In this document: in pieces, positions 1,589 to 64,000 of the stretch
Numbering within the stretch: the first letter of the stretch is position 1
How the letters are laid out: each line of letters opens with the position of its first letter
Source: Lytechinus pictus
Taxonomy: Eukaryota
Assembly: GCF_037042905.1 (NCBI RefSeq)
Contig: NC_087251.1
Span: 23,996,001-24,060,000, forward strand
Direction of reading: 5' to 3'
DNA: 64,000 bases
Notes under the pieces: generated by a model
Seen by the model: the letters and a program-made list of their open reading frames with translations, nothing else
Database searches by the model: none
Told to the model about the DNA's origin: nothing
Made by a program: the position numbers and the translations under genes

Positions 1589-1593
1589 TAATT

Positions 1594-1613
1594 TGGTGTC
1601 AGAAGTGGGATTC
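1594..1613 (+). promoter_or_regulatory. Primer-binding site complementary to the 3' end of tRNA-Leu (probably CAA isoacceptor)
   Basis: TGGTGTCAGAAGTGGGATTC, 5 nt after the 5' LTR. Its reverse complement GAATCCCACTTCTGACACCA matches the metazoan tRNA-Leu T-arm/acceptor/CCA end as I recall it. Confidence 0.88.
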
Positions 1614-1739
1614 TAGTCAAGGAATATAATATTTAAGGCTACCCAGTAGTGTTTTTATTGCTATTCTTGATTTAAAACATTATATTACCTATTATCATTT
1701 CCTCCTCCTCCATTTCGTAGACAATTTCTAAACTGTAGG

Positions 1740-2693
1740 ATGGCCACAGAAGGTAATAACGGGGGTGCCCCCATCTCTTCCTCAAACCAAGGCACATCTC
1801 AAATAGTGCCGCTCCCTTACTTTCCATTATATGTAACAGTACCAATTTTCAGTGGGGACAACCTTGAAGCCACTCAGGGGATAGAGGGGTGGATTGCAAG
1901 AGTGGAGGCAGCCTACAAAGCATGGAATATCCCCGAGGACCAGAAATCACAGGTCATCATCCATCACCTCGCAGGAGAGGCCCGCAGGGAGGTGATGGTT
2001 TTAGATGGTGTGTCACGGGCAGACCCTTCTAAAATATTTGAAGCTCTTCGAGATATCTACGGAGAGAAAGAGACATTGGCATCCTTACACAATAAACTCC
2101 ATGGACGACATCAAAGGCCCGATGAGACAACAAGACAGTTTGCCTTGGCTCTCCAAGAGCTCACAGGGAAGATTGAGAGTAAGTCGAAAATACCCAACGT
2201 GGATGAGGTGTTGTGCGGATGCTTCCTTGAAGGGATGCGCCAGGGTCCCGTGAAGATCGCTGTCAGCCGATTCGCTCGTCGGAAGGGGGCTATCTCGTTT
2301 AGGATGCTCAAGGAGGAGGCAAGGAGGATAGAAGCGGAGGAAGTTATGTCAGGCCGCAGTGAGTGTGGTCTGGCGGAGGCATCCGTTTTCAAAACAGATG
2401 GGGTCAGCAGCTCGGCAAGTAGTGATGTTCCCTTCACCCTTTCTCAACTGACTGAGGAGCTGAAGGCCCTTCGGATTACTGTGACCGAGCTGAGTCAGCA
2501 GGTGGCCAAGAGAGGCAGAGGACCTGGGAATCAGCAGGGAGGAAAGACCAGGAACCAGAGCTGGGATGACCAAGGTCGCCCAAGGTGTTTCCACTGCAAC
2601 GAGTGGGGACACATGGCCCGAAACTGTACGCGACAGAGAACAGAGTCGTCAGTTACAAGCTCACGTCAACCATCTGGCCAGGATTTAAACTAA
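1740..2693 (+). CDS. gag: Gag (PNMA-like capsid plus CCHC zinc knuckle), 317 aa
   Basis: Capsid-like motifs PIFSG..IEGWI and W.IPEDQK...HLAGEAR; MHR-like QRPDETTRQFALAL; knuckle CFHCNEWGHMARNC; ATG in aggATGG context. Confidence 0.95.
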   Translation: MATEGNNGGAPISSSNQGTSQIVPLPYFPLYVTVPIFSGDNLEATQGIEGWIARVEAAYKAWNIPEDQKSQVIIHHLAGEARREVMVLDGVSRADPSKIFEALRDIYGEKETLASLHNKLHGRHQRPDETTRQFALALQELTGKIESKSKIPNVDEVLCGCFLEGMRQGPVKIAVSRFARRKGAISFRMLKEEARRIEAEEVMSGRSECGLAEASVFKTDGVSSSASSDVPFTLSQLTEELKALRITVTELSQQVAKRGRGPGNQQGGKTRNQSWDDQGRPRCFHCNEWGHMARNCTRQRTESSVTSSRQPSGQDLN

Positions 2694-7012: not shown

Positions 7013-7398
7013 ACAGCGAGTTGGTAGAAGATAGTTGATAGATACTAACATTATTGGTATCTCTGCCAAAGTGGCAATTAAGTGACATATTTGTATGCAT
7101 TACGTTTGCATATGTGGGTATTTAGTTGATTTTGTGTTTTGTCGATTGCGATGTCATTCTTTTTTCTTTAACTATCATTTCCTCTCTCTTTTCCTTTCCA
7201 TATTATGTATTTTGTAAATAACTGTAAATATTTTCCAGTTCTTGCATAACACTGTGTTTTATTTTTGGGTTAGGTTCATTAACTAACTTGTATTTTGGAG
7301 AGAACTTCTGTATGTAATTAGTCTTGTAGATTAGAAAGCTTGCAAATACTAGCAGCAATGTATATATTTCGTCATGACATGTGGAAGTCATGACTTTT

Positions 7399-7411
7399 GA
7401 AAGCAGGGAGG
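7399..7411 (+). promoter_or_regulatory. Polypurine tract
   Basis: GAAAGCAGGGAGG, 2 nt upstream of the 3' LTR. Confidence 0.8.
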
Positions 7412-7413
7412 TG

Positions 7414-8624
7414 TGTAAAGTATAGACCTTTCCATAATGATCAGAATATTTGGTAATAGGCAACACTCTCACCCCCCCCCCCCTTCACTCCCCTCTACAT
7501 TATCCTTGAATGTGTTTATGTTTAGCTCTAACAGGTTTATGGGTAGGGTGGTCGACCCGAGGCCAACAGACGGTCACTGGGCAGCGTTCCCATTTGGGTC
7601 AGCGTAGTTTGTAATGAAATAGGATTAGTTTAGTCTTGGTATAAGCTCATGGTCAGAAAGTCTATGGAATGTCAGTGTAGGATAGTGTAGATCTGTTTAG
7701 ACTGAGATATTTTGTTGTGTATAGTTTATTAACTTAGTCTTGTATGGCAGTAGAATTAGGGGAAACACAAGATGGTCAGTATTTTAGTACAAAAAGAGAA
7801 CAGGACTTATGACGTGGCATGGAGAGCTGCTACATGAATGGAACAGTGGAGATACATTTTTTTGCTTTGAAAAGGATTGGACAGAGTTGGATTGGATGTG
7901 AAGAGAAAGAGGACACAGTTTGGCAGTTGTGCTGGAATATTTAATATTGTGGTGAACCGTATATTGAGCATTTTGAGCAATTTATTCATTTTTATCCTGG
8001 AATTTGCCTTAGAAGAAGACATAAAGTTATACACAACTTATTTGCCCCTCTGCACCCAAAAACGTTGGTATTGGAGTCAAAACATCTTGATAAACGCTAT
8101 CCAGCTTGTGAGTATTTTTAAAGCAAATTATTGGAAACAAAACCATTTGGAAATCGGAATCAATTAAGACGCTATCCTGATTTATGTTCTTTGATTGTGA
8201 ACATTCGTTTTGGTCAACACTTAATAAGAGACGCTATCCAGAGTATCTTCTTTAATTTTGGATCCCTTGAGATGCTATCCTGATCGATTATTGAGACATT
8301 TATTATAGGAGAGATTCCACACTTCCTTAGCTCCCGTTATATCCATATCATCAGACACTGAGAAACAAACTGCTTCCTTTTATTTTCTTTGGTTCTCATT
8401 GTGAATACTGACCGATCTATTTTTTGTTTAATATTATTTAATACATTATTTGAGTTTGTTTTCTGATTCTGTCCAAGTCGTAATATTACATTTTTGTTAC
8501 CTGTATAGCCTTGTATCTTTATAGCCTTGAATATATATATCCCCAGTTATTCTACAAAGCCTGTTTGACTTTGTTTTTGTTTGACTCCTTGACTACAGAA
8601 AAGTATGTTAGTTTGAACCTTACA
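7414..8624 (+). repeat. 3' LTR (1211 bp)
   Basis: Copy of 377-1588. The only difference I found by eye is C12 versus C13 in a homopolymer. Followed by TSD TACG. Confidence 0.97.
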
Positions 8625-43142: not shown

Positions 43143-43327
43143 GTAGAGAAGTAAAGACTGACTTGCAGAGAAAGACTGCAGAGAAGGAAGCTTTTCTTTG
43201 GAATGACTTTAAAAATGTCTAGATGACAGAATTTGATCTTTAGAGAATCTGGTAGAATCCTTTTATTAGGACAAAGTTGTTCAATTTTTTTCATTGGAAG
43301 ATTGTGTGTGAGAGGACAGGACTCACC
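43143..43327 (+). other. nrxn: 5' UTR portion of the neurexin first coding exon
   Basis: Strong acceptor ttttttatttcttttatttttgcAG at 43141-43142 implies upstream non-coding exon(s). Contains two short uORFs (43203-43226 and 43223-43243). Confidence 0.6.
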
Positions 43328-44066
43328 ATGAAGCCATCAATAGCAATTTGGAAATCAAAACTGTTACTTTTAATAATCTTTGCTGTGTCATGGCACACTG
43401 CAATGTCACTCCGTTTTCTGGGCACTGAGAACACATACGCACGATATGAGGAGTGGAACAGGACAGTCAACGGAACTCTCAAATTTGAATTCAAGACAGA
43501 AAGGAGAGATGCATTACTACTGTACACGGACGATGGTGGCACTGGGTCAAAGTTCTTCTTGGAGCTTGTACTGGATAATGCACAGTTGCAATTACGCTTC
43601 CGAATCAGGAACAAAGCAAGGACAATAATCATTGGCGAAAACCTGGATCAAAACACATGGCATAAAGTCACACTAATGAAAAGCCCAGAAGAGTGTGTTA
43701 TTATCTTGGATGGTGTAAGAAAAGCAGGAGCTATTCCTGATGGTCAGACATCGCTGACCGGGAGCTCGGATTTGTTTATTGGTGGTGTCCCTCGTACTTT
43801 GCCTGTTACGGATATCTCTGAACCGGAGGTAAAATTTCTGAATCGCTTTGAAGGCCACGTTCGGAACTTAGTTTACCTGGTGAGCGAGAGACCCAAAAGG
43901 TGGTATCGTCCTGAATCGATGGCAGCGATCGGCCTTGAGGAAGATCCTTCAGATCTTTGTGGCAGTGATGACTTCTGCAGGAACCAAGGTTTATGTGTCA
44001 GTTCTGATGCAGATGCAGAGTGTGATTGCTCAGGGACAGGCTACACTGGTCTTACTTGTGAAACAC
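43328..44066 (+). CDS. nrxn: Alpha-neurexin first coding exon: signal peptide, LNS1 (laminin G) and EGF1
   Basis: caccATG start; hydrophobic signal LLLLIIFAVSWHTAMS; FEFKT...ALLLYTDDGG...FLELVL, WHKV, LFIGGVP and FEGHVRNL; EGF C..CRNQGLC..CDCSGTGYTGLTCE; donor CAC|GTAAGT (phase 1). The single-exon SP-LNS1-EGF1 layout matches neurexins. Confidence 0.9.
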
Positions 44067-46712
44067 GTAAGTATATAATACACAATACAGGCAAGTATAT
44101 AGTTTCTCTATATACTCTTGTCATTTTATTTTAGAATTTTTCTAGTGATTTCTGATTCCTTTTGGAGAGTGAAAATTTATTTTTCAAACAATGTAGAACA
44201 AATGGATATTCATTCCTAAACAAATGAACCCCCACTATTCTCAGTGAATCAGACTTTACATCTAATGTCACACAGATTATCTAACCTTATTCAAAATGTT
44301 CTTCTTTCAAATCATCAATATATATTTTCTTTCAATAGTCTGATGAGCTGTTTAAAAATAAAAGATGAACAATCTAGTTATAGTTGCATGTAAATTTTCT
44401 GGGATGATGTTTTAGTAACTTTGGTAACCATTAATGCAAAGTTACATGTATAAAAAGAGACAAAGCATGAGAATTTGAGATCATGAAAATTAACCATTGA
44501 CTATTCATTGATCAAGTCACAAAGATAATACCAATAATTTTGACTTTTATCCTAAATTTATTTTATTTTTCAAATTAAAAAATCAAGATAAGCATAGCTT
44601 TACCTTTTAACTCGTGTTATGAGGATTTTTGCAGGGTATGATTCCCCTACACCATTCGTGGTTGGAGTTAAAATTTCATATGCAGCATACATTAGGTAGG
44701 TTATAAAGCAGCGTGAAACAGGTCTGAAAGGATATCATCAGAAATAAGGTTTTTGTGTTTATATTCAGGTGTGGGTTTCTTCCGCTAAACAGGAGCTTTG
44801 CACCTGCCAATGCAAGGTTGTATAATATCATCATTCCTCGGGATGGTTGTATGAAGAGAGAGGGGGAGAGGAAGACAGAGAGAGGGGGAGGGAGAGCATG
44901 CAGATGGATGAGTGGGTGGTAGAAAGTGTGTGAAGACAAAAAAAAGCGAAATATACAGTGTGTCCCAGAAAAAAAAAAAACCGAAAATTTATCAGTGTTT
45001 TTTCTTTTCATAACTCACCAAAAAATGATAACTCACATAAATGTAAAGTGTTGGCTCCCCTTTTTCTCATTAGTTCTGTTATGATGTATACATGATGAAT
45101 GAGTGAGTTAAAACATATCGTTAACAAAACAAATTTTTAGTCTATAGACTAAAAATTTGTTTTTTTTACGATATTTGAATTTTTAAAGAGATAATCACTT
45201 GTGTAAAGAGTTCAATATATGCTTCTCAATTGGAAAAAATGAAATAAAAGCTCATTTTAATTTTAATGAAACAATGCTTGCATTTCAATATCATGATAAC
45301 AAGATGTTTTCACTGGCTGTTGTATACTGTATTTTATTGATTATCAAATATGCAAAAAGTCTTGACAGAAGGTAACCAATGAAAACAATTCATGTCATGA
45401 CATTATTGATATACACACATTATGTTAAAGAAACAGGACTTAGTTATTCCTAATTCATGTATTTTCACTATGATTTAGTTATCATATTAATAAACATATA
45501 TAATTGAACTTTCTAGGAATGTGAATTCTCTATCAATTTACCCAGAGACCGTCAACTAAATAACCTTTTAGTCTCCTTTCTTCATGTTGTTTTTACGCAC
45601 TCATGTGTGGAGTAGGCATCATATAAGTTGCAAAGCAAGTACACAAAATAATATGCAGAAAGAAGAAGAGCATGTAAAATTTGAAGATGGATCTTTGTAA
45701 GGAATATAGTAATTTTACATGGATCAGATATAAGAAAGGAGAGAAGTATAAGAAAGGGCACATTAACATCACCAAAGCAATAGGAAGTATAAAGAAAGAT
45801 ATGAATATGAATCAACAAAAAGGGAAAGAGAGAGATGGGGGATTTAGCACAAGAAAAGCAGAAAACTGCAAACATTGTTGATGGAAGAAAAACAGAGATA
45901 GGGGGACAGACAGAGATAGATGGACAACCATAGTTTTCTCCTTAAAGAAAATCTAAAACAAATGATGGATACAAAGCCAGAGTTCCTGCTTCCGATCAGT
46001 AGGCTGCTCATGCAGATATTCAGATCAATAACTTTCCAGCCTGTGAGCCAAGGAGTAGTGACGTACTTGTGTATGAACTATTGAAACATTGCTCCCTTCT
46101 TTTCATTTTCCTTTCTTCATATCTATCTCTCTTCCCCATCTTCTCTCCCTCTTCTTTTCTCCCTTCTCCCTTATATACTCCTCCCTTTCTCTCTTTCTTT
46201 CTCCTACTCCTCATCTCTCTGATGACTTTCTTGCTCTTTTTCTGTAACACTTTGTTTCACATATGGAATCTGATGATAGGCAATGTGGAATCTAAACCTA
46301 GTTTTAAGCATTGAATTATCATTCTGTCTTTCCTCGTCTTCTCTCCTTTGCCATTTAACAGCGTCGGAACTTGGTTAGCATTGCTATCTATTTCCTAATC
46401 ATCCTTGATCAAAGTAATATTCTCTAAAAAATTGATAAAATGTGATTGTTTTTTAATATTCCTTGCCTACAAGGTTCTATATGTAATGTATTTTTAATAT
46501 TTTCCATCTTCTCTCTTTCTCTCTACCTTTTCATCATTTTCAACTTAAATTATATGTGAGAAATGCTTTTTAAGAAAATCATCTATCCTCTGAAATAAAT
46601 CAATAACATTAGAATGCTTGTACATATTATCGTAATCATTGCACAGTCTCTTTATACCTCAAGAAAAGTAATAATAACTTACATTTTTGTTATTGTATTT
46701 GTTTCAATGAAG

Positions 46713-46742
46713 CACTCATACCCCAAACACAATCTGAAGAAG
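46713..46742 (+). CDS. nrxn: Candidate neurexin SS1 microexon A (30 nt, phase 1-1; (P)LIPQTQSEE)
   Basis: T-rich tract...tgaAG| exon AAG|GTAAGC. Length is a multiple of 3 and it is open in the required phase. TGCATG lies at 46764. Confidence 0.68.
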
Positions 46743-48972
46743 GTAAGCTGTGTATAATATGTCTGCATGGAATGCATTGAGTTTTGTGATATGAGTATTG
46801 TTATTGCTTCTAGCTTTTTCAATCCCTAGATATCATTTTTATAGGAAAGAGCAAAAGAAAAGGGATTAATTTGAAATATTTACATAACCATTTTTTTTTA
46901 TTAGTCAATTTTAACAACTAATGAGATGTTAAATATTTAAATGAATGGTAATTTCCCTTGGATCTCAAGTGAGAAATGCAGCAAATTTTCACTGAGGTAC
47001 CATGCCCAGATTGTTGAATACTTTCAATACACAATGTGAAGGATCACTTATTCCTTTTGACTCTCATGATGTTGATATTCACTGCCAAGAAATCAGCTGC
47101 CCCCAATTCATTGTCAAGCTTTTGATTCTGAGATACTTTATGAGAATTTCACAAATAATTAACATAGTCATTGTGATGGACTTGTAGTTGATAACTTAAT
47201 TGGATGTTGCATGTCTGTGTCAGTGATAAGAATTATATATATACTGGTATATATATTTTTTTTGGGGGGGTTGGGGCTGTTTTTAATTTCTTGCCATTTT
47301 AGAATACTTGTACAGAATCCGATAGCATAAATCTCTTTTAAACTTATGAAGTCCATTTGTAACATTTTGAGGGGCAAATCCCTCTTTGCCCATATATTTT
47401 TCCTATGAACATTGTATTAGTTATTGTATTTGTTTGTACTGTGCTACAGTTTTGTTGTTGTATGGTAATATTGAATAAACATATATGATAAATAATATCT
47501 GATGAAATATTGAAACTGTTGTTATTTTCAACCCGTTTTATAATTCAACTTTAATCAAATAAGTTGGATCAAATAATTTTTAAAAAATGTTGAATAAGTT
47601 ATGTTTTTATTATAATGAGCTCTAGAGTTTGAGCAGTTTATATGTTATTCGAATGTTTGTTTTGTTTTTGTGCATTTTTTTCATTGCATATAAAAGCTTT
47701 AAAAAATAGTAGACTTTAAATAAGTTTCGGCAGAATAACAATGTTACATTCTTTTTATTTCGAAGTAAATCATTCATGAACTTTAATTGTGATATTTGTT
47801 TTGTGTGTGTGGCATTTTTTTTTTACTCAAAACTATTTTACATCATTTGCTTTGTTTTGAATTAGTCACATTGTTAAATAAAACCCCAAAACATTCTTTT
47901 CTTCATATTTTGATCAATTAACACGATAACTAACTCATAGGTCTATACAGACACATTTTAAAAAGAACCTAGCATTATTTTTTTCCTTGATGCAACAAGA
48001 TGGCCTTCCTTTCCAAAACACAACAAGATGGCCTATCTAGGCAACATTTACTATTGATTGAAGTACATTATACTTCTCTCTATTTCCATTAACCGTCCTC
48101 AGTCTAGGTTCTTTAAGAAAAATTATTTTGCTTCTCGGCATATTCAGTTACAAAGAATACAATTTAATTAGATATTTAAAGATTTTCCCCTGGGGTATCA
48201 TGGTTTTAATGTATTACTCTTTCATGGAAACGTAAGTATTTAAGGAACCAAGTTTGTGGATACAACCTTCCTTCGTAGGAAAAAACAAGATTTTTGAGTA
48301 TGTATTTATATGCATCTTATCACCAAATTCGATATATTTTTTTCATTGTTATAGATTTATAATTTATATTGCATAATTTTGTCATGTTAGTGCAAGAATG
48401 CCCTTAGCAAAACCTACAGTTGTGCAGAAATGCCCTTATGCAATTCACTTATTCGTGCTGGTAAGGGTGTTTTTGCATGCATGCAGTGTGCAAATGTGTG
48501 GTGTTACGGGTTCTCTTGCACCAACACAACAAAATTATTCTTGTAGTAGATAATTGTATGATGTGTGTTATCTTTCTTAGATGCATGTAAGTTTTCTTGT
48601 GTAGGTCTTGTCCAACTTAGTTTAATGAGCATTTTCTTTTTTTAGTTTTAGTATTGTGATCAATTTTCATACCCATTCTGTAAAAATTTTGATACTTCTT
48701 TGTTCAAATTAGTTTTGTTCTTACTTGTATATATTTCAAAATATGAGAAACCTTTGAAAATTGATTTAGAATTGATATGGATAGTTGTTTGAATATATAT
48801 TTGAATGAGCATTTTGTTAACATAAGAAACAAATGTCCTTGTTTGATATTTTTTTTAATTCAGAAAATGAAAATATATATGTTTACCCTATGTCACTAAG
48901 AAAGCATTGTCATCAGTTGAAAATGAAAATGATGAAAATCTCTTTGACTTTTCCCATTCTATGGATATACAG

Positions 48973-48990
48973 CGCCTGATGAGAAAGAAG
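48973..48990 (+). CDS. nrxn: Candidate neurexin SS1 microexon B (18 nt, phase 1-1; (A/P)PDEKE)
   Basis: ctctttgacttttcccattctatggatatacAG| exon AAG|GTAAGT (consensus donor). Length is a multiple of 3 and it is open in the required phase. Confidence 0.75.
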
Positions 48991-49028
48991 GTAAGTGTTA
49001 AGTGTCTGGTGAATCCAAATATGAGTTA

Positions 49029-49189
49029 TACCTTGGTCACATTTGCTCTACGGCGGCCGTACGGCGAGTCGAAAACAGCCGTTTTATTAATTTCAATTCA
49101 AACCACCTATATTTAGTTGGTACAAATATGTTAAAACGGCTGTTTTCGACTCGCCGTACGGCCGCCGTAGAGCAAATGTGACCAAGGTA
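49029..49189. mobile_element. 161-bp palindromic Harbinger-like MITE (58-bp perfect inverted arms)
   Basis: 49029-49086 is the exact reverse complement of 49132-49189. TTA TSD at 49026-28 and 49190-92. Confidence 0.9.
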
Positions 49190-52100
49190 TTAGTCTCTTG
49201 TTGTTAAACTAGATGTTGAATGATTTTTAATCAAAGCTCCTTAGACATGTTATGTGCTTTTTATTTGTTTTTGTTTTAATTTCCATTGTTTTATGAAGGG
49301 GCAGTAAAGAGAAGGCGTCACAATGGGAATGTCACACAGTGTTTGGTTTATAAAGGATCAAAAGATGTCTTAGAAAGCTGCTATACAGGTGATACTCTTG
49401 AATGCAGCTAGCCGCATTGTGTTGCCGAGAAAGAGTTTATGTGCTTTTGCAAAAGGTTCACAACTTGCATTATCACAATGTAGCAACGGAAGCTTGTTCG
49501 TATAGATGCACTTTTGCAAGAGTTCATATTCACAAGTAAAGCAAGCTCATGACACCTTTTCACTTTACGTAATTAAAAAAAATTAATGAAAGAAAATAGA
49601 AGAGAAAACAGAAGTTCTATTTCACATAACTATTAATCCACCTATTGCACTTGAATTGGTTCTTATTTGTATTGTATCAAAATATGGATTGCTATTTTAA
49701 AGATAATGTACGGTTCCCTTTTCTTTAAAAATTTGTAAACTAACTCTAAACTGATTAATTAATGACTGCAATCATTATATTACAAGCATAACAAGCATAC
49801 TGTTAAATTATAAATAAATAAAATTATTAAGTGGGTGGGGGTTGCGAGAACTCGATCTTTGTCAATTAAAGAAATGATTAAATTTGCTTATTTACACTTT
49901 GACAGTTAATACCAGTTTTTCAATTTTGTTTGCAAAGTAAAAAAAAAAATCATATAAATGATATATTTGTCACTTTAAATGAGTATCCTGATGAGGAATG
50001 AGAGCAAATCACATGTGTGTATATATCATAGTTTGTTGTGACATCTTCTCTTTTATAACTTCTAGTATATAGAAGTCTGCATTGTGCTGAATGTTGCATG
50101 CACATTTTGACATAAAACTTGCTGAACGTCAGAATCTTATTAGAATAAGTTTGAGTGTTAACATTTTACTTCATAATATCTAGGAGGGTGTCAGGCATAC
50201 ATATTTGAAGACTCTTCCCAACAAAACTCAATCTAGAGTCTCTGTAAAAATAGTTTATGTGCTAAAAGCAGGTCACGTTTGATGGGCTATAGCTATATCT
50301 GTCAAATTATATTATCATTGTAAATATTTTAAAACTTTTTCTGTACCTCTGAAATAATAATAAAATGTTAAATTTTTTTAATTGTGATTAGGAAGTATTC
50401 AGAAATAACAAAATCAAGTTGTGAAATGATTACATGCATTTCTGTAGTTTTGTACTAGACTAGATGCTATCTGTTTATAATTGGTGTTGTTTTGTTCAGT
50501 ATTACTATTGCCTTAGTTTTCTTTCAAGCAATTAAAATGAAAGGGGTGATTTTGTTGTTCTTTTTATTGCATTTATCGTGGCATTATTGTGAAGTGTATT
50601 AAATAGAATACTATACACATTTTATTGGGAATTAAAATCTGCATATTGCATTTATTTTATGGGATTTCCTCATGCAAATAATTGGAGATCTTGTGAACCA
50701 TGATCTAGGTTGAGCTGCTCACCTTGGTAATGCCTTAGACATGATGGCAATGCCCTGATGAGTTTAGTACCTGAGTGATTTACCGCGACAAGGTTCGTTA
50801 AGCAGAAAACAGCAGTAATCCAGAAGATCCGGAGTAGAAAACTACCCTAATTTGCTTGTAAATTAACATTTTTATGTTGACGACATACTTTGCTTCATAA
50901 CATCCATTTTCATTTTGAACTGTTCCTTTGTTGGAATTATCCATCCCGGGAGTATGTATTTATGGCTGCTCCTGAATGCCACTAGTTGCAGTATCAAAGC
51001 AAATTCTTGTGGGGAATTATGGTAGAATGCATGGAGGAAATGAGATCTAGCTTGTTGTGCATTTATGCCCTGTGTTTATGCATGCTTGTGTGTGATGGAG
51101 AAAAATTATTAGGATGATATAGTTAGATAGGAGAGATGATGATGAATGTTGCCGATGCTTTTCATGTAATGAAGTAAAAGCCATGTATCTAAATTGACAA
51201 TATTACATTGAAAAGAATGATGAGAATGAACAAAAGCATGTGAGAGTGAACATGATTGAACAACATACCATGCTTATCTTGCTTTCTTTGGAAAAATACT
51301 ACAAAAAAAAGAGTTTAGGTTCACTCTTATGTTCAGGTTCATATGTGCGTGCTGCAATTCCAAGAAATTTAGAAGAAAATTAACCATTGCTTCATATACA
51401 CATATTTTGTTAATGTTTTTTTAATCATAGACTTGCCTGGAATTTGTAACCACAGGGGATTGTGAAGCAGTGGGTGATCAGTGCCTTTGTGAGGTATTGA
51501 CACTAGCCAGCCATTGAGGCGAATCTTAATCAGTCAAGCTTGATTTTATTCAAGGGTGGTGCTCTTCTGTTAAATTATTTTAGCTGGCTTGTGTTTGTCT
51601 TAGAAATATAGACCTACAGGTGAGCTTTAGTGCAGTTCTTGACACGAAGAAGAATCGAGATGTCTTTAGCAAAAGGTCAACCGTCAGGTTAGCACTTGCA
51701 GGAGTTCACTTTACAATCAAATTTGCTTTCATCGATGCTCGCCAAGACCCATTGATACTTAACCTGTCTTCTTAAATTGGATTTCTTTTATGAGATGACT
51801 ATCACATGTGTGTTTAGTGCATGGCTAAGTTACAGTACTAGTAATCCAAAGTTCAGACATGGTGGTTTTTAATTAAACCCTCATATATTTCTGTGAGAGA
51901 AGAGAAGAATGCTGTCTAGATTATTCCTGCCATTGTGTGTGTGTGAGAATTTCAGTGTACTTAAGGATTTTATTGCCAAGATTGATTTTACAATTGCTCT
52001 TCAATATATTGCTTGTCATAAGCAAGTGCTATCTAGAGAAGATGTGGAATAAGTGATTGGATGAAGGAATTTTGTACATTTTGGAGACCACAAAAAGAAA

Positions 52101-53349
52101 ATGTTAATTATTTCACATAACTGAGAAAATTGAAGATGCATAGAAGCAATGATAAGACTTTGATTGAATGATGACATAAAATGAAATAGAATAAGAAAAA
52201 ATGACCATGACATAACATAGCTGAGAACCATGTTATAAAGACCAAATTAATGCATTTTACTGAGTCAAGCAAATTAAAATTTCATGCTCATTAGAGAGCA
52301 ATTATGGTCTCACATTCTGACCTTTTTCAACTGTAGAATTCAACTCTAAAAGTGTTTAAACATGGGATTGAATCTTCCATTTTCATGAAGTGTCAAGTGG
52401 CAAAAATGGATGAAAAATTTAAAAAAATTAATTAAGTAGTATATATATATATTTGAACTATAGATTCATTAGTAGTGCATATAATCTCACAAAATTTTAA
52501 GTCTTTTAACAGTCTTTTTTAACAGTCTCACTTGGGGCTTGGACATTGTTTTCTGATAGTATAAAAAAGTAAAGTGAATCATTCAATTATCATAGCCATA
52601 CAAAGGCTGAATTTGAATAGCTTTATCAGAAAAATGTGTTTCTGTACACTGAAACCATCTTTTCAGTGTAGTTATCTTATTTTTGAAAAATCCATTTACA
52701 AGCAACAAGGTGCAAAATAAAAGCAATAAAAACTATTTTTAATAAACAAAGCTACAAAGACTGCAATTTAATTTGCCACTATTTAGTGAATTCCAAATAG
52801 ATGAAGGTAAATACATTACCAAGAGAAAGGAATTCAGATAATCATTCACTTTAATCATAATATTCCTAAAGAGATATGATCAAATTTACAATTTACTGTA
52901 ACTCTTGGTTACACATATATACTTACAATCAATATCTCTAATATTTTTATTTTGTTTGTCATTGGTTCATCATGACATCATGATGGCTGGGTTGACAAAA
53001 TATTTTTCAACCAAGCAATTGCATCTTAATTAACCTACAAAATGTTTTGTGGAGTAAAATAGCAAGTGTGTAAATGGGCATTTTGTCTTTGTTTTAAGAT
53101 GTAGCTACACAAATAGATATTTTTTTATAAATATAAATTATACAGTTCATCAGCAGTTACCTTTCCCGTAATGGGATGTATTTGCTATGAAATGCTTTCA
53201 AATAACACCCTTTTCCCCAACTTTGTTGTATGAAGAATTTCTATCATTAATTTCAGATGACAGTCAAGTGTGCTCTATGGAAAGAGCAAAGCTCTTGTAT
53301 CAATGACAAGCTTCATAAAGACATGAATACTGATAGCCAACTGTTCATA

Positions 53350-53658
53350 GGCCGGTATTCTGAAGTCGGGTTTAATCTAAACTCTGACTTTAAGTTGTGG
53401 TTTAACTATGGAAAGCCAGTTGTTACATAAATCTATAACAGTAGAGGTTCAATGTATAAGCTCATTTGACTCCCAAAACATTAACTGCCTGGGAAGGATA
53501 AATATGACAGTTGTCTTCACCATTAAAAAATTAGTAAAGAGCACAGTAAACATGAGAAGCATTCACTGTAAACAAACTTTTGAAATGTTTGGCTTCCCAT
53601 AATTTTAGCACAAAGTAAGACCATGGTCTAAGTTTAACGCGACTTCAGAATACGGGCC
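53350..53658. mobile_element. MITE with a 3-bp TSD (Harbinger-like), 309 bp
   Basis: ATA|GGCCGGTATTCTGAAGTCG...CGACTTCAGAATACGGGCC|ATA: a 19-bp TIR with one mismatch. Confidence 0.82.
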
Positions 53659-54347
53659 ATAGAATTCAAGTGAATATTTCAGTAGAGTATTTTTTTCATA
53701 GATAGTGCATTATAAAACACAGATCATAGTCACGCAGTGCTGTTTTTAACCTCCTTATACCAATGCAGCAAGTGTGTATAAGATCTTCATCTTGAGAAGC
53801 TGACCTTTTCTTTATGCCTCAGGAAGTGTTTTCCTACTTCATCGCTTGGTAGCCTCGTCCCAAATGGGAAGTTTAGAAAGTAAATAGTGGGAGACATATT
53901 ACTCAAATTTTGCAGCAGAAGACGTTAGTGCTCATGCATGTGATGTTATGTAATTAGACCAAGGTATGGGTCAAGGTGGTATGCTTTTATAAAAAAGCAA
54001 ATAATATAGAATAGAATATAGAATAGTTACATCTTTTTGTCAATCATTTATTTTCTTTGAGAGTATGTGAAGGAAAGGTGTAAAAATTCTGCAAGAAATT
54101 AATATGAAGCTTGTCTATCTTGTTTGACACAAACATCAGGACATTTTTAAAGGTATTTTTACTTTCTTATAATTGCATTTGATTGAAGCATCTCATATAT
54201 TTTAATTGAATTGGTTATTTTTCTTTATTATCAAGCTTTTTTTAATTCCAGAGTGCATTTACTGGGTTACAACATTTAAACAGTTTTTCCCATGTAAATC
54301 ATGCTTTCTTTGAAATTCCATTCTCTCATCTTAGGTAGATGTGAAGT

Positions 54348-54618
54348 TATGATAATGACAAGGATGATGATTTATGATGAGGAGGAGGAGTAGGAGGATG
54401 ATGGTGATGATTATAATGATGGCAATGGGGATGATGATCATGATGATAATGATGATGATAATGGTGATGATGATGGTGATGGTGATGATGATGGCGATGA
54501 TGATGACGATGATAATGGTGATGGTGATGATAATGGTGATGATGATGACAATGATAATTACGAGGATGATGATGATAACATTGATGAAGATGATATCGAT
54601 GATAATGATATTAATGAT
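54348..54618. repeat. Imperfect (GAT)n microsatellite
   Basis: Read directly from the sequence; explains the poly-Met ORF 54374-54655. Confidence 0.9.
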
Positions 54619-55214
54619 TGCGGATATTTATATTTCCTCTGTCTGGCAAAGATGACAAAAAGATAGATATAGAAAGATGGAGAGGGAAAATGTGATAACA
54701 GGGGAGTGATGTATGAAAAAAAAGAGAGAAGGGAAAGGGTAGCTAGGTCATCAGAGATATAAAGAGAGAGAGTGAGAGAGAAAGAGGGTGGAGTGAAGGG
54801 GAGGGGGGGGGGTGATGGATAGTGACCAAGGAGAGAAAGAAAGAATGACCCACTGAGAGCACAGTTTTAATGCGATACACTGGGACTTCAGCTTTTATTG
54901 GATTCTAAATGCCACATGCAAATGTGTAATATGATTGCTTGGCATTTGCTTCTTGCTGTCCATTACAGCGTTTAGTCAGAGATTTATTTCCCTTACCCGA
55001 CTTTCCACTTTAATTGGAAGGAGGCAAAGAAGACTACACGATATGCCTACTCCACTCCAGCAGACTGATGATGGAAAGTCTAACATAAAAATTCTATGAC
55101 TGGTAGTTGGTTTATATTACTTAACGGTGGAAGTAAATATGGACAGTTACGAATAAGAAATAGCGTAATCTGTTTCATAACTATGATGGGGGGGGTGAAT
55201 TTAGGGTTTATTTT

Positions 55215-55520
55215 CAATTGGTCTAATGCCAGTTTGTCTAATTACCAACTGGTCTACTATCATTTGGTCTACCATCAGTTCATCCCCTATCCACATGGTC
55301 TAAGTGCCATTTCATCCTCTCACCATTTCATCTAATAACCATTTGGTTCAATAGTCATTTAGTCCATTTATCATTTGGTCTCATTGGACTAAAATGTTAA
55401 TTGGGTGAAATGAATGAAAATAAAATGGATATTAGACCAACTGTTATGAGACGAAATGGTCATCAATGAACTGGTGATAAGACAAAGTGATGATTGGACC
55501 TAATGGTTATTTACCAAATT
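55215..55520. repeat. Decayed interspersed repeat with TTGGTCTA / TAGACCAA motif arrays in inverted arrangement
   Basis: Multiple GGTCTA motifs in the left half and AGACC motifs in the right half. Family not identified. Confidence 0.45.
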
Positions 55521-57001
55521 TAGGTACAATGGCTATTTATTCTGCATTTATTATCCCTTGATAACATTTTGTACACAATAGAGTAGCAAGATGTAAGGAT
55601 TAATGATTAATGGTGGATTTTTTCACAGTTTAGCTTCATATTTCCTGGTTGTTGTTTTTTAACCATTTTCTATGTGCATCTTAAAGATCCACCTACAGAT
55701 AGTTTGCAATTTTAAAAAGTGAATGTGATAGACTTGAACCTCTCTCCCTTGCTTATCACTCCCAATTTGGGGCCGAATCAGCTTTATATTTGAAGAGCAT
55801 TCGCTAAGTAAGACCGAGTTGTTTGATAATCGAGACTGAATGGCTATCAGGTGAGTCTACAGAAGACCTGAAGGGATTGGTTTAAACAAAGTCTCCACTG
55901 TTTATTTCCATCTTCTTTCCAGCCCCATTATTCTCCATCTTAGATTCCCCTGTTGGCATTGTTATTACAGTCCCATGCCAGAAGCTACTCCCAAACACAG
56001 TATTGATTTATCACGACTAATTTTTTATCTTGTCTCTTCAATATATTCCTGGTCACCCGGAGAAGTACATGTAGGTGGTTTGTAGTTGGGTTCTGATCAC
56101 ACCTCTGCGCCATGTGTTATTTATCGTTATGTTTATCTCGGGATTTCATCTTAAAAAATGATGTAAAGTAAACTACCATGCATGAAGTATTTTTACAACC
56201 ATACATTTGGGAAAGACCTATCAGTTTTCACATTTAAAGAGAAGTAGGTTTGAATGAAGAAGCAGCATGGTGATGTTTAACAAGATTTTTTAAATGAATT
56301 TGGATATCACAATATGATAGTGACAATTGAATTTTTTGTCACCTGTCAACTCCAGTATACAATGTAGGCCTACTCATTAAGTTAAGAATAAATTTAATGA
56401 AAAGGAATAAATACTGAAAACCAATTTTAAAGAAATGTTTTTCAAGCTCTAAAAGCAGCTTACTCTACTGTTGGGACATGTCTTATTTGTACATGATATT
56501 AATTAAGAATGGATTTAAAAGAAGACCCAAATGCTTTACACACTGTTAATCATTCAACAATTAGGTTTTGGAATATATGTTTAGTTTGTTAATATGCAGA
56601 TGATATATTTGACATTCCATCAGATGGTTTTCATGTGGAGTAATTTAGAGCAGATTGCGCCTGTGTGTGATTAACGGGTGTGTTTGTACCATACGAAACG
56701 TTGCACAATCATGCAATCGTTAAAATGATTTAGCTGCCGCCGATAATTATGATAGAGTGTGTGTTTAAATTGGCAAGAGACGAGTTGCGCAAACATGGTG
56801 TTTGATCATCGTTGCGAGGAACATCTGTCACCGTAGACCCTCGTCATGTGACAATTTTTTGTTGTTTATTTGTCAAATGCCCTCAAGCAGTGGCCATGAG
56901 TATGCAATTGTTATGGGCTTTGGTCTTGCTAATTTGGTCTTGCTGATAATCATTATACAAAATTTATTATTATCTTAGCTGACACCTTGGTTGAACTTTA
57001 T

Positions 57002-57283
57002 TATAATAATAATATGTCAATTTATATAGCGCTGTTACTATGTGCATATACTCAACTACTTGGTATCATATCATTAACCCGGCCGTAGCTGAGCCACCAT
57101 ATCAGTGCTAAAGCATCAAAGAATAAATCCTACTGGGTACCCATTCACCTCACCTGGGTCGAGTGCAAGACATTGTGGATAAATTTCTTGCTGAAGGAAA
57201 GAAAACATGTCATGGCAAGGATTCAAACCCACAACCCTCTGTGTGAAAGTCAAGAGTCAGAACCACTAGACTACGACGGCGCC
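57002..57283 (-). mobile_element. tRNA-derived SINE with a Deu/Nin-like central domain and an L2-like tail
   Basis: Minus-strand head GTAGTCTAGTGGTT (A box)...GGTTTGAATCC (B box). The central GGGTACCCATTCACCTCACCTGGGTCGAG (+) resembles the Deu/Nin domain as I recall it. Tail is GCGCTATATAAAT...(TTA)n. Confidence 0.72.
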
Positions 57284-60200
57284 CATTGATTGATAAAACT
57301 AAAGTATGATTTTTTAATCATATCTTTTAAAGTTTAGGTAAAAAATGTCCCAGTAAGAAAATAAGAAGAAAAAGGATGGTCAACTCATATGACATAAGAC
57401 CTCAATCGTTTAAAAGATGGAGGATTTTTAACAGTAAGAATAGTACAAATTGTAGACTTTTTCATTTTTACATTTTTAATAAAAGCTCCTTTAAGATGAA
57501 AACTACAAAGTTTAAAAACATTTTGTCATTTTGATATTGATATTAAAGCTTGTATGTAATTTCAACTTTTCAGAAAAAAAGCCAGCATTATGTTTATTAA
57601 TGCATTCATCATGCAATACATTGATTGTTTGAAGAAGAGGCAAAATAAAGGCATGAATTTCAAAATTTGCAAAGTAAAACAAAGTTGTTCATTATTCACA
57701 AAATTATTTTCTCTCCTTGTTATATCTACAGGTTCATGCAAAAGTCTACCTCACACAACCTATTTTTGTCTAGTTTTACATAGGTTAAATTAAATATTTC
57801 ATATCGCTACAAGCCATGGTCACTCTGAAGAGAACTTAATAGGCAGTAAATGAAGCATCAGAGTTTTTGAAAAGTGGGGAGAATAATCTTTGCATGTTGA
57901 AGCCTAAGGCAGATCAAGTACGGCAGTGGACCAGTGGCGCCATGCCCTATACCTACCCGATCTATTGCCTCTACTTGAGATGTCAAAACCTCCCCGTTTT
58001 CATGAATAATGGAGATTATGTCGGGAGGACGAGGCGGCGGTGAGTAGGAGAATGACTAAATTAGGCCCGCAATCTGATGAATAACTTGAGATTTCTGATG
58101 TAAAAAGTCAGTTATAGATTTCAGTTTCTTTTAGGAAGGTTTGCGAAGTGCTTGGATGTAGCAGTCAGCATTTGATAGCAGTAAGATCTATTAAAGAATG
58201 TCATTGATAGAGAGTGTGGTTTGCTCTTTACCACATGATTCATATCTCAAAAGCTTCCAGGGCATTGACACATTGTAAGACTATATGGGTTAATGTCCTT
58301 CTAGTCGTAGGGATAGAGTTTACTGTTGCCTTTAAGGTGCTCATTGGAGAGAGAGAGAGACTCTAGGTTTCTTTAGACTTTTCCGTAGAAAATCTGCACA
58401 TAAGCCAAAAATGAAATTGAAATCTTAACCTGAACCTAAAACTTATACGATTCTTGTCTTAAGATAATTCTTATTCAAACAGACCAACCATGTCACAATT
58501 CAAACACCAACCCTATATTGTTCAGAAAATGAAACAAGATAAATTGTTATAAGGAGGCATGTTGACTTAGGGCTGAGGTTATGATAGTCATACAGACTCA
58601 GTGGTAATAAGGTTCCATCGGTGGCAATCCCTGTTCATATAAGCCATATTAGAGTGGAATTCTTTTTTATTATGATTTTCTCCAGAAGGGTAAATATTGA
58701 TATCTTTTCATTTTCAGATTCATGTTGATACTTTTAAAATTAAAGAAAAGCTACATGTAATCATGGTTAGAGGCTTTAATATTTATGTACCTGTGTATGG
58801 TGCAATGATATGGGGGAAGGAACCTCAGGGCATACATTCTAAAGCCTTGGATTCAAGTTCAAGTACGCCATTCCCAGGCCAAAATTACACCCTCAAGGGA
58901 TCTCAACACAGAGAGAATAGCTGTATGAGAAATGGAGCAATCTTCTACGAATAATGAGCGGAAAAAATTTACATAGATGGAGCCAAAGAGAGAGAAAGTG
59001 CTCTATGCGAAAATGAAACCAATTACATTTGCAATTTAGATTGATGTCATGTTCACACTCCCATGAAACTCGAATTGTAATTTAACAATGAATGGATGCA
59101 CTTTGCAATCTTTTGCAGCTATTCATTCTGTTCACTTCGAAGCTGGTGTTGTGGGAAAGGTTCGAGGCAAACATTTGTGTATAGTCCCATTCATACACTT
59201 CTGTGTGTAGTTCATGCGACCCAAATCAAAATTAACTGAATTTTTGGTGATCCAAAATTCTTACAGCAGGCAATGACCCTCAGTTGCCTAATTCATATTT
59301 CCTAATCATTTTTGAGATATTTTGTTTTTCTAAAATTCAATCTCATGACCAGAACCTTTGATTATCTTTAAATGAGTGATATGGTACTATTTGAGTCTTT
59401 AATGTTTAGGTCTGTTCATTCCAGAGAAAGAATGCAGAGAAAGTACCCATTACTGTGTACCATTGCAAAGTAAAAAATAAAGATTGAAGCATACATAAAG
59501 TATTTCAAAATAGAAATAGATCAAGGGATCCATACGGTTTTCAGTAGATGAAGTTATTCATGATTTTGAGCAGTTTATAGTGCAGTTTCTTATGCCGTGA
59601 TATAGCTTTGTTCTTCAATTATACTATAACAATTTCACTCCAAACACATTGCCACTCATTGCATGAATATTTTTAGCACTCTGCAGCTTTTCCAGATCGG
59701 CAGAAGCGACAGAGAATTCCCCAACCCATCAATTCCGTTCCCCCATACTCTAATGTGTGAATACAGGTTTATGAGATATGCTAAGTACATACTTCAGACG
59801 TAATTGCCAAGTGAAGATATGCACATGGCAAAGTGGAAGAGGTGTATTATGACTTTCATCCATATCCCATTTCAGTTATCCAAACAGCTCGCCCTAAAAT
59901 GAGGGACTGCTTTTCTGTTTTCGCATCAACTATTCATGAAAATCTTGCTTGGTTATACACAGGAATATGATACCGGTAGAAGTTGATTAATGCACTGCAC
60001 CCTGCTTCATCGATGATGAATTCTACCACTCATAGTGGAGACATTCTCCTGATATGATTGAGCATCGATAGGGTTAAAATCTCCCTGCATATTGCGTAGC
60101 CTGTTTTTCTTGAGGAGGAATTCTAAAGTAGCATGAAAGAAGCTATTTTTTTCCATATCAGCCTGGCATTACTGATACAGGCATGACGCACATGCCAAAG

Positions 60201-61597
60201 ATTATATGGATATGCTTATTTGGGGCAAATTTTTTTTCCCAGAAAACTGATAGATTTCAAAAGAGATTGAAAATTTCACAGCCGATCACCATTGACTTGT
60301 AAGATTTCTCATTTCCTACATATTATTAGCATTTGAAATGATGAAATTATACTACTTATTAGAGCTACCTTGTTTGTAATAATAGTTTTTAAAATGAACA
60401 CTTTACTGGCCAGTGATTTTCTTCTAAGGCTTGCTCCAACCTATGAGATGTTTTAAGATAAGTTGGTATCAATTATAATATCATGGGTATTATTTGCATT
60501 GTATCTTGCTTCTCTTCCAAGCCTGCATTTTATGCAGCCTTTATAAAAGACATTTGATATGATTTCTATTCGAATATTTTGAAGTTTCACTTAAATTTAT
60601 TGCTTGCATTTTCTTTCAATTTTTTTTCTTTGAAAGAGGTTTTATTTGTGTCGGTTTACTTTGGTTGCTTGTCCATGTCTCTAATGCTAGCAGTCTAAAG
60701 CCCAAGCAGATATTTGTCAAAGCCGTCAATTATAGTTCTGGCCTTTGGGGAACCCTGTTTGAAGACGTTCCGGGTAATTGCCCATAAAAAACGTATTTGA
60801 TTATTCAGTATCAGTTTCAAAGATAATGTATGATTTCATGTTTATATTTGTTTGTTTCTGTAGTGCATGCTTTATACATATCCTATTTCTTGTTTGAAAT
60901 TTAAGTGTTATTTAACTATCAAACTCTCATAAGAATTAAAAGGTGTTAGATTATTGTTGAATACGTTCCAACCAGGGTGGCTCGACTATTACACCTTTTC
61001 GTTGAATTCAGATCATTTGTGTCTCAAAACTGAATGGCTAATACACATTGCATTTTGTGATTTTGTAAAATATTGTGGTTACTCTTACTCTCACATGTAC
61101 CATTTTGTGGTTATCATATTAAGAGGATTTGTTTATAATTTGGCTTCTAACCTGATTCAGGGATATACTCAAGTTAATAGAGATATGATATTTGATGATG
61201 AGAAAGAAAAGGGGAGGGGAATTTGTAAAGCAACTATTGTATGAACTCAAAATTTGAGCCCATAGACACATCCCAAACACAACTCTATGAGGAATTTATG
61301 TTTTCTTACTTCTAAGTCAATTGTATTTGAAATAGTTATTGGTTGCTCGTTCTGGTTTTGGTTGGTTTATAATTTGTGTAAACTTTGGCCTGTTTCTTTC
61401 TTAAAAGAGTTTGAACTCAGTTGAGACTATCTGTGTAATAATAACCAAACACCAGAATCAGTAGAGAAGATTGAGAAAAGGCCATTATGCTGCATCCAGA
61501 TGTTGATTATTTTGTCATAATTGAAAATGTAGCTATTTCACAGGACTTTGGATGTGGATGTAAATGATTTTTCTCCCCTTCATCTTGGAAAATACAG

Positions 61598-61902
61598 GTA
61601 AAACAGCCACATCAGCTACCTTTGACGGGAACACCTACATCAGCCTTAGTCTTGACAAGAAGCAGATCTCAGCCTCTCGGGATGAACTCCTGTTTGAATT
61701 CCGGACCCAGTCTCCTACAGGCCTTATCATCAGTAATGGAGAGCATGACTATCTCTACGTTGCTATGAACGGAGGCAGGATCGAGATAGCTATTAATCTT
61801 GGATCAGGAGAGTATAGAGAGTTTATCTCTGCGAGGAGAGGGCCAGATGGATTCATTGATAACCAATGGCATAAAGTCAGGATTACAAGGGAAAATACAC
61901 AG
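61598..61902 (+). CDS. nrxn: Alpha-neurexin exon encoding the first part of LNS2 (gene continues beyond the window)
   Basis: Acceptor ttttctccccttcatcttggaaaatacAG in phase 1, compatible with 44066. ATFDG..Y, DELLFEFRT, DYLYVAM..G.IEIAINLGSG and FIDNQWHKVRITR match neurexin LNS2. Donor CAG|GTAAGA (phase 0). Confidence 0.9.
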
Positions 61903-64000
61903 GTAAGAATAGCAAAGTTGCTTTTTCAGTGTCAGTATGACCAAAAATACACTGGGTCAAAGAAATTTTGATTGAAAATGTCAATTTTTCATTCATTTAT
62001 TTGAAGACTGATAGTGGAACACATGACAATGACATGAAAAGTGAAACAAAATTATACAAAAATCACAATGTTATTGGTGAAAAGGATGTCTGCTAAGAAG
62101 TGTCAAACCTGGAAAACATTTGAAGGTTAAAAATTGCACCTTTCAAATATAGATCCTCTGTATTTGCATTTTGCAAGAGTACCTTTCTAAATTGCTATTT
62201 GGTTCAATAAAAAAGTTGTTTTTTTTTTATTAAAAGTGAGAAAGTATCACTTAAACACATGTCTATTTGTACCATGATGGGCATTGTTTTGTTAATTTCT
62301 AAATTAGTAAAGCATCATGCAATTGTTACTGCCTATTTTAATTGAGGACAGTTTTTCAAAGATAAAAATATGTAACTACTTACAAAACAGAAAATAATTT
62401 GTTAAAATTCTATGCTCTATGAGTTAGCATCAGTTTAAACTCTGGATTAAACCTAAGGGATGATAATATTCAAATTAAAAAAAGAGGAATTATTCATTTC
62501 TTTCCAAACTGCATCTAATATTAAAAGGTGATAGAAATGGAAGAGAAAGTTTGGATTTAGTTAGTCAAAGCTGGATGTGAATAATCTTCCTGATCAGTGT
62601 CATGTCAGGGCTATCTATCTGTGGGAGTAATTGAATATTAGCCATGGCTCCCTGTGAGTGTGAGTGCGGGGGTACATCTGGACACACGTTAGAAGCAGGT
62701 GCAGGACGGGGAGGCGCCCATCGAGAGAAGAAAACTAATGTTAAAGGCTCACTCATAGGCAGGGAAGTCCATTCAGATATTGCTTTCTTCAGAGAACTAC
62801 TTAGAGATTGTAATTGATAGTGTTGATATATTTTGCCTTGAAGTCATATGTGAACTTTTGAAAAAAAGAGATGACTTATTGTAGATTTATTTTGATGCCG
62901 GGTTTGACTGCAGATTCTTTTTATGTATAGGACGTATTTTTAATGTCTGTTACTGAAAAGGATTTTCATCTAAAAAGATATGTATCAATCAAACATGGAT
63001 TTATTGTTTACTTATTCTAGATGTAAACAGGCAATAATCACCTTTATAGTTATTTTTTTCTTTCCTCTGGAGCATACTTATTTTTTTTTAAATGAAATTT
63101 ATGGGGAGCAAAATATCATTATATATCATATCGTTAGAAATGTTCATTTCTGGTAGAAGTCAATAATTATTTTAAAGAAAGTAATTCTATAAAGACTGAT
63201 TTAAGATGGCGATGAAATTATGCTTCCTTTATTCATTGTTATTACAATACCCGAGTCTTGGTCCTTATCACAAATTACACAGTAAACCATTGTTAAATTG
63301 CATTAAGCTAGAGTGATTATTCTATTTTGATCTTTATGTTACTATACATGTCCTGTAAATCAGTATCTTGCATGCAATTGTATCCAGCTATTCCTGTACA
63401 TTTGCCACTGACTAACTGGTAAATGGATTTATTTTGCTGCTGCAGTATGAAAGCTTCTATTTTTAGTCATATTATCATGCCATGTGTGAACCAGCCGATA
63501 GGATGTAGATGGTGTTTTAGACGTGGCGGCTGAAGTTGGACGTGGTTACATTGACACCATTCTGAGATCTAAATTAAAATTTATTTCAAGAAAATTCTCT
63601 GGTACATCATAGTGACAGTAAACATCACACAAGTGTAGTAACATTTTAGAATTAATTTCCCATTTTTCTTTTGCACTTTATTTTTCTTTTGAAAAATCAT
63701 TAAATGAGATTATTTATGTGGTATTTGTTGTTCCTAATTCGCCAACATCTTACTGCATTATTGGTATTTTTTCTTGATTAAGTCAGCAAATTGTCAATAG
63801 TGTATATTTACATGTATTGACATTATTGTATGAAAATGTACAAAATCTTGCTAAGATGATTTAAAATTCTTTTGAAGTTTTATTAAATGAAGTGGTTTGG
63901 GGGTAGTTTTATACCTATGTCCAGTATATCTGTAATATGATTATATTCAGACCTCTCATTATTTCCCTCATGTGTATATTTGTTACCCCCCAAAAAAATA

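Follow-up and report, generated by a model that had tools for sequence, protein, structure and literature searches.

Alternative splicing of neurexins is a central idea in synapse specification. One of the vertebrate neurexin splice sites, splice site 1 (SS1), lies between the EGF1 and LNS2 domains. Several frame-preserving mini-exons make up this site in varying combinations, and in its short form EGF1 runs straight into LNS2. In rodent and frog Nrxn1 models the short form reads C-SQ|GKEEYIATF, and the inclusion forms read C-SQ|GLAHLMMGDQ|GKEE... and C-SQ|EDNNVE|GLAHLMMGDQ|GKEE..., the latter also occurring with a further GKSK. To our knowledge, the regulation and function of vertebrate SS1 are unknown, even in mammals. 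Here we report on two microexons, designated A and B, which are located at this position in a neurexin gene of the sea urchin Lytechinus pictus. The analysis covered a stretch of 64,000 nucleotides (contig NC_087251.1, positions 23,996,001 to 24,060,000 of the forward strand), which is referred to as the window.

Neural microexons are a second related system. Those of the SRRM4/eMIC type carry a UGC motif within approximately 40 nt upstream of the acceptor. The SRRM4/eMIC-dependent neural programme, reportedly described by Irimia et al. in 2014 and Torres-Mendez et al. in 2019, is said to comprise exons of 3–27 nt.

In a 2025 review (PMC12665717), extensive splicing still "appears to be exclusive to vertebrate Nrxns". 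The one evolutionary study found, Uvarov et al. 2014, treats SS4 only and reports that SS4 is absent from sea urchin and fly and arose in chordates (PMC3933685). SS4 is likewise an alternatively used neurexin exon with a studied evolution, but it is located in LNS6, outside the window. In the full-text literature searched, which did not extend to Tabuchi and Sudhof 2002 or Treutlein et al. 2014, neither SS1 nor A and B were described outside vertebrates. The accessible parts of a honeybee neurexin paper and of a 2022 review on wiring receptors contained nothing bearing on SS1.

The plus strand of the window very probably carries the 5′ end of a Lytechinus-type alpha-neurexin gene, in which A and B are genuine cassette microexons and the echinoderm counterpart of vertebrate SS1. 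The relevant features are as follows.

43328 to 44066, plus strand: coding exon 1, with start Met, signal peptide, LNS1 (LamG) and EGF1, assigned from the open reading frame (ORF), Pfam and contig ends
46713 to 46742, plus strand: microexon A, 30 nt, phase 1-1, stop-free, encoding (P)LIPQTQSEE
48973 to 48990, plus strand: microexon B, 18 nt, phase 1-1, stop-free, encoding (A)PDEKE
61598 to 61902, plus strand: first LNS2 exon, encoding (G/R)KTATSATFDGNTY..., with acceptor CAG and donor CAG|GTAAGA

The order of signal peptide, LNS1, EGF1 and LNS2 in the window is that of the N-terminus of alpha-neurexin. Pfam Laminin_G_2 was detected at residues 55–183 of the exon 1 product (E 1.9e-17), and the EGF1 cysteine pattern is legible behind it. 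This product matches the neurexin models of both L. pictus and L. variegatus at 246/246 residues. The L. variegatus ortholog contains six LamG stretches together with EGF and Syndecan domains, and the window holds the first exons only. Exon 1 ends with ...TGT GAA ACA C at 44066 (...TGLTCET + C) in phase 1, at the donor CAC|GTAAGT, and the RNA contigs from L. pictus and from a close relative both end their exon 1 piece there. The peptide of the LNS2 exon begins with (x)KTATSATFDGNTYISLSL... and again matches LamG (Pfam Laminin_G_2); its best match among solved structures is LNS2 of neurexin-1-alpha (3qcw, residues 233–325). An end of this exon at 61911, as drawn by the contig pieces, was rejected. 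The L. variegatus protein runs on as ...ENTQ-VTIRVD, so that the nine extra contig letters represent alignment overhang beyond the donor at 61902|GT. The EGF1–LNS2 intron is in phase 1 and 17,531 nt long (44067-61597).

Microexons A and B in transcripts and gene models

We read the borders and codons of A and B directly from the sequence. Microexon A is bordered as AAG|CACTCAT...GAAGAAG|GTAAGC, with a weak AAG acceptor and a purine-rich 3′ end (GAAGAAG). Microexon B reads CAG|CGCCTGATGAGAAAGAAG|GTAAGT (CGCC...AAAGAAG), with a CAG acceptor and the consensus donor AAG|GTAAGT. The inner codons of A encode LIPQTQSEE and those of B encode PDEKE. With A and B included, the split codons encode P, A and G as read by eye; with both exons skipped, the junction codon is R (C|GT). 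The complete insert, PLIPQTQSEEAPDEKE, is acidic (net charge −4) and contains three prolines and no cysteine. The coordinates, phase, frame and absence of stop codons that an earlier note had given for A and B are exact in the sequence, and its claim that inclusion converts the junction codon from Arg to Gly is borne out by the split codons.

Four sequencing runs were aligned to 43300-62000; the run types were guessed, and none is recorded as RNA. A contig from L. pictus (5206 nt, depth 21) places 44066 and 61598 next to each other at record positions 4110/4109. It is a spliced transcript that skips A and B. A contig of 4706 nt came from a close relative, namely a run sharing 0.73 of the 31-letter words of the window. 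This contig joins 44066 to 46713 and 46742 to 61596, with 16 unaligned letters at the second joint. Its 46 extra letters (30 on 46713-46742 and the 16 unaligned ones), together with 2 letters on 61596-97, make the 48 nt of A plus B, and the two microexons are thus spliced into mRNA. Only 2 of the 18 bases of B differ from the window, and both changes are synonymous (GCG>GCA and AAA>AAG, by eye). They are the sole differences seen in A and B of this contig. Among the junctions that the earlier note had proposed to look for, 44066-61598 was obtained in L. pictus and 44066-46713 in the close relative, and the raw RNA run listed none. In the fourth run, intron coverage extends over 28 of 30 bins without junctions, and the run behaves like DNA or unspliced RNA. 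In the run of the L. pictus contig, a mean depth of 0.91 that was not attributed was recorded for the bin that contains microexon A.

We then compared the window with the 90% cluster of its protein match, which contains five RefSeq isoforms of Strongylocentrotus purpuratus, five of L. variegatus, and L. pictus models. Their EGF1–LNS2 linkers are as follows.

S. purpuratus X1-X3: CET-PLIPQTQSEE-APDEKE-GKTATSATF, A and B
S. purpuratus X4: CET-PPDEKE-GK..., B only
S. purpuratus X5: CET-RKTATSATF, neither exon
L. variegatus X1-X4: A and B
L. variegatus X5: neither exon

The peptide of A is present in three of five S. purpuratus and four of five L. variegatus isoforms. That of B is present in four of five in each species, once without A in S. 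purpuratus, and B can therefore be used alone. The 16 inserted residues in both species are identical to those of the window, although the exon 1 product has only 92% identity to S. purpuratus neurexin-3-like in the protein search; the coding sequence of the cassette is constrained. The two isoform sets are a record of alternation within a species. The close-relative contig and the RefSeq isoforms identify A and B as genuine exons at the EGF1–LNS2 junction, and their alternative use follows from the skipping contig, the including contig and the three RefSeq forms.

An L. pictus model of 265 residues ends with ...APDEKE-GKC-stop, which is a read-through of the B donor (G|GT AAG TGT TAA; 48990-48999). 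The L. pictus RefSeq gene appears to be split, as the remaining neurexin part of approximately 1210 residues is a separate model. The break in the gene model seems to be due to the 12.6-kb intron that follows microexon B. The description of the cassette as hidden, and as easily missed by annotation pipelines, was not supported. A and B are already contained in the S. purpuratus, L. variegatus and truncated L. pictus models, and two-exon cassettes of their own occur at this position in the sea cucumber and starfish models.

Several observations weigh against A and B as an alternatively used cassette of this gene. The splice-motif pattern alone is at chance level: phase-1, stop-free AG...GTAAG segments of 9–60 nt and a multiple of 3 occur nine times in the 17,531-nt intron and twice on its opposite strand, compared with 7.5±3.3 in 300 first-order Markov simulations. 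The L. pictus transcripts showed the skip-both form only, and in the raw RNA run, where depth was approximately 3 for exon 1 and approximately 2 for the LNS2 exon, no junction passed the listing threshold, so that this run is uninformative in either direction. Alternative use in L. pictus is therefore derived from its relatives and from the truncated L. pictus model. The RefSeq isoforms are automated predictions whose underlying reads are not visible, and the Diadema models have the short form only (2/2 readable). Finally, no TGC is located within 70 nt upstream of the A or B acceptor. The nearest one upstream of A is at −73, and none occurs within 150 nt upstream of B, which argues against a classical SRRM4-type microexon signature.

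The chance level of the motif pattern would be expected if A and B were pseudo-exons that are never spliced in, and the case for them must therefore rest on transcripts and conservation. Seven look-alike decoy segments lie in the same intron, and A and B are set apart from them only by transcript and cross-species evidence. This evidence is direct: the close-relative contig contains A and B with two synonymous base differences and no others, and the same 16 residues recur in the isoforms of two further urchin species. Unless the contig and RefSeq records are wrong, the pseudo-exon explanation is already refuted, and we give it practically no weight. Constitutive inclusion in L. pictus, with the skip forms arising as artefacts of contig assembly or isoform prediction, would agree with the inclusion of both exons in seven of the ten urchin models, with the tendency of contigs to drop variants, and with the predicted nature of RefSeq isoforms. 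The L. pictus contig, at a depth of 21 over 5206 nt, joins 44066 cleanly to 61598, and skip forms recur independently in S. purpuratus and L. variegatus, in Apostichopus japonicus and a holothurian transcript set, and in Asterias amurensis. We consider constitutive inclusion very unlikely.

The urchin neurexin isoforms also vary elsewhere. A 13-residue insert is located in the third LamG region and is missing from L. variegatus X4. Two others, AFNITYG (7 residues, near residue 806) and VTPR (4 residues, in the stalk), are each found as inserts in both genera. These three further variable points indicate that echinoderm neurexin is spliced at several sites besides SS1.

The cassette in other animals and vertebrate SS1

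A wider survey of the linker was performed by cluster look-ups and an exhaustive representative search, which gave 32 echinoderm models with a readable linker. One further word-based protein search was dominated by fish neurexin-2; newly found were Ptychodera X4, Glandiceps, Patella and one amphioxus model. The forms obtained outside the urchins are listed below.

Apostichopus japonicus: DV-AFDRFTQSAE-ASSETE-ERQ in 4 models, DV-ASSETE-ERQ in 1 and DV-ERQ in 1; 10+6 residues
Holothurian transcript set: 17 inserted residues in some forms, none in others
Acanthaster planci: 12 + 6 residues in 3 models, 6 only in 1
Asterias rubens: both (12+6) in 3 models, 6 only in 1
Asterias amurensis: none in 4 models, the sole starfish with a no-insert form
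Patiria: both in 2 models
Crinoid, truncated model: C-NE-DVSTIMMSSE...
Ptychodera flava (hemichordate): NV-AASVEDE-VSSSVATF in X8 and NV-VSSSVATF in X11 and X4; an optional 7-residue insert
Phallusia (tunicate): C-EE-PLGQLMMADAPAAYNQAVATF

The sea cucumber and starfish isoform sets share a cassette layout of 10 or 12 plus 6 or 7 residues. In A. japonicus X1-X6, A. planci X1-X4 and A. rubens X1-X4 the layout is 10–12 + 6 and the same three forms occur, and the urchin sets (S. purpuratus X1-X5 and L. variegatus X1-X5) have the same exons as the window with identical peptides. Only the short linker was found in Clavelina (10/10 isoforms), one amphioxus model and one Glandiceps model. All protostome models read have a short invariant linker (barnacle 9/9, locust 2/2, oyster 2/2, abalone 1, limpet 1).

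The downstream 18-nt exon is used without the upstream exon in four species. The reverse was never seen, with the upstream-exon-only form found in 0 of the 32 echinoderm models. This pattern hints at hierarchical exon use, which may reflect ordered or dependent exon definition. The four isoforms that had been proposed as an upper limit are thus represented by three on record (both, B only and none), and the A-only combination is missing.

The vertebrate RefSeq isoforms, in which Nrxn3 behaves like Nrxn1, vary at the same residue position as the urchin cassette. The proposed identity of the position with vertebrate SS1 was confirmed, as two residues separate the last EGF1 cysteine from the insertion or deletion both in urchins and in vertebrates. 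In both, the linker has the form C-x-x | inserts | x-K-x-x-x-x-ATF, with the insertion point approximately six residues before the ATF strand of LNS2. Like SS1, the urchin cassette consists of several frame-preserving mini-exons used in combination, and its short form connects EGF1 straight to LNS2. Units of 18 and 30 nt are found in both lineages, those of vertebrates being EDNNVE and GLAHLMMGDQ in the rodent and frog Nrxn1 models. The vertebrate junction residues G, E, D and A are encoded by G-codons, which would fit a phase-1 intron, and in the urchin phase 1 was read directly. The two lineages differ in three respects. The insert sequences of vertebrates and echinoderms have no similarity recognisable by eye, the 30-nt unit precedes the 18-nt unit in echinoderms but follows it in vertebrates, and vertebrate SS1 has further units (GKSK and longer ones) and many more combinations. 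We class the urchin cassette as working like SS1 and as occupying the SS1 site, and do not claim descent from the same exons.

A shared position can arise by convergence or by inheritance. In our estimate, slightly better than even chances belong to an ambulacrarian invention that converged on vertebrate SS1, which would leave the reality of the exons unaffected. The ancient phase-1 intron at the domain boundary would then be a permissive site, at which short in-frame exons may arise repeatedly. The opposite order of the 30-nt and 18-nt units favors this view, as does the lack of convincing similarity of the echinoderm inserts to EDNNVE, GLAHLMMGDQ or GKSK. The short linkers of the single amphioxus model, Clavelina (10/10) and the one Glandiceps model point in the same direction, as does the short invariant linker in every protostome model read. 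Convergence would nevertheless have to account for an insertion point that is the same to the residue, for unit sizes that are the same (30 and 18 nt), and for junction residues that in all deuterostomes read agree with a phase-1 intron. Moreover, both sides of the deuterostome tree have optional inserts: vertebrates on one side, and Ptychodera and four echinoderm classes or lineages on the other. The crinoid DVSTIMMSSE and the tunicate PLGQLMMADA look intermediate between the 10-residue units of holothurians and vertebrates, a similarity that is weak and judged by eye.

The latter observations would suit an older origin. SS1 may already have been an alternatively spliced hinge in the last common deuterostome ancestor, with a conserved phase-1 EGF1–LNS2 intron, and the 30-nt unit may form a single exon family with an age of more than 500 million years. 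The putative members of this family are PLIPQTQSEE of the urchin, AVERSVQSSE of the sea cucumber, DVSTIMMSSE of the crinoid, PLGQLMMADA of the tunicate and GLAHLMMGDQ of vertebrates. We offer this ancestral origin tentatively, and rate its chances as clearly short of even. If true, it would overturn the textbook statement that only vertebrates splice their neurexins extensively, and it would provide a simple larval model for finding what SS1 is for.

A and B themselves are not new, because RefSeq models already hold them, and the cassette is an annotated and ordinary one. The link to SS1 and the evolutionary depth of the cassette seem not to have been written up. The finding is of moderate interest, which lies in the conservation across echinoderm classes and in the exact coincidence with vertebrate SS1. 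An SS1-type cassette is present in sea urchins, sea cucumbers and starfish and is not acknowledged in the reviews of the field. It makes SS1 function testable in transparent, morpholino-friendly larvae.

Recognition, regulation and predicted effect on the protein

A and B are probably recognised through their consensus or near-consensus donors (AAG|GTAAGT and AAG|GTAAGC), and the purine-rich GAAGAAG and AAAGAAG at their 3′ ends may act in an enhancer-like manner. AAG acceptors are rare. The weak AAG acceptor of A would make it the more conditional exon, used only together with B, which fits the models, where A was found only with B.

The EGF1–LNS2 hinge is flexible in vertebrate neurexin. In the urchin, inclusion would add 6 or 16 residues to this hinge and change the junction residue from Arg to Gly. 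The insert is predicted to lengthen and charge the tether between the LNS1–EGF1 arm and the rest of the ectodomain, and would leave both folds untouched.

Neural regulation of A and B is expected by analogy with vertebrates. Like neural microexons, both are very short and frame-preserving, have strong donors, encode surface or linker residues, and belong to a synaptic adhesion gene. They are unlike the SRRM4/eMIC programme in having no UGC close upstream, and microexon A, at 30 nt, exceeds the classical size limit. We also searched for TGCATG, an Rbfox-type motif; Rbfox-enhanced exons have (U)GCAUG close to them in the downstream intron. One copy is close to microexon A.

46764 to 46769, plus strand: TGCATG, 22 nt downstream of the A donor, a lead only

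The intron (44067-61597) contains 14 copies of TGCATG, compared with 3.3 expected from base composition, and the chance of one lying this close to either exon is estimated at approximately 5%. No TGCATG was found near microexon B.

Repeats and mobile elements in the window

A long terminal repeat (LTR) retrotransposon occupies 436-8546, approximately 35 kb upstream of the neurexin start. Its LTR copies are reported as 100% identical over 300 nt (436-735 and 7472-7771, spacing 7036), and duplicated ORFs suggest a length of approximately 1.1 kb for the LTRs. The element contains a gag-like ORF at 1671-2693 (340 aa) and a pol-like ORF at 2570-7012 (1480 aa). These open frames suggest a recent insertion.

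Repeats within the EGF1–LNS2 intron, at 49026-49192, 53350-53660, 55200-55500 and 57116-57254, have hundreds- to thousands-fold coverage in all four runs. The same peptide is encoded from both strands of 49002-49189, which indicates a near-perfect inverted repeat. An imperfect (GAT)n array of approximately 82 copies is located at 54363-54609, with long His/Asp/Ile-rich open frames on both strands. No tRNA genes were detected in the window by ARAGORN. In the raw RNA run the repeat at approximately 57116-57254 shows a strong strand bias (839 vs 67), and its reads continue into a tRNA-like end (GGGATTCGAACCC) at approximately 57200. It is probably a short interspersed nuclear element (SINE)-type element.

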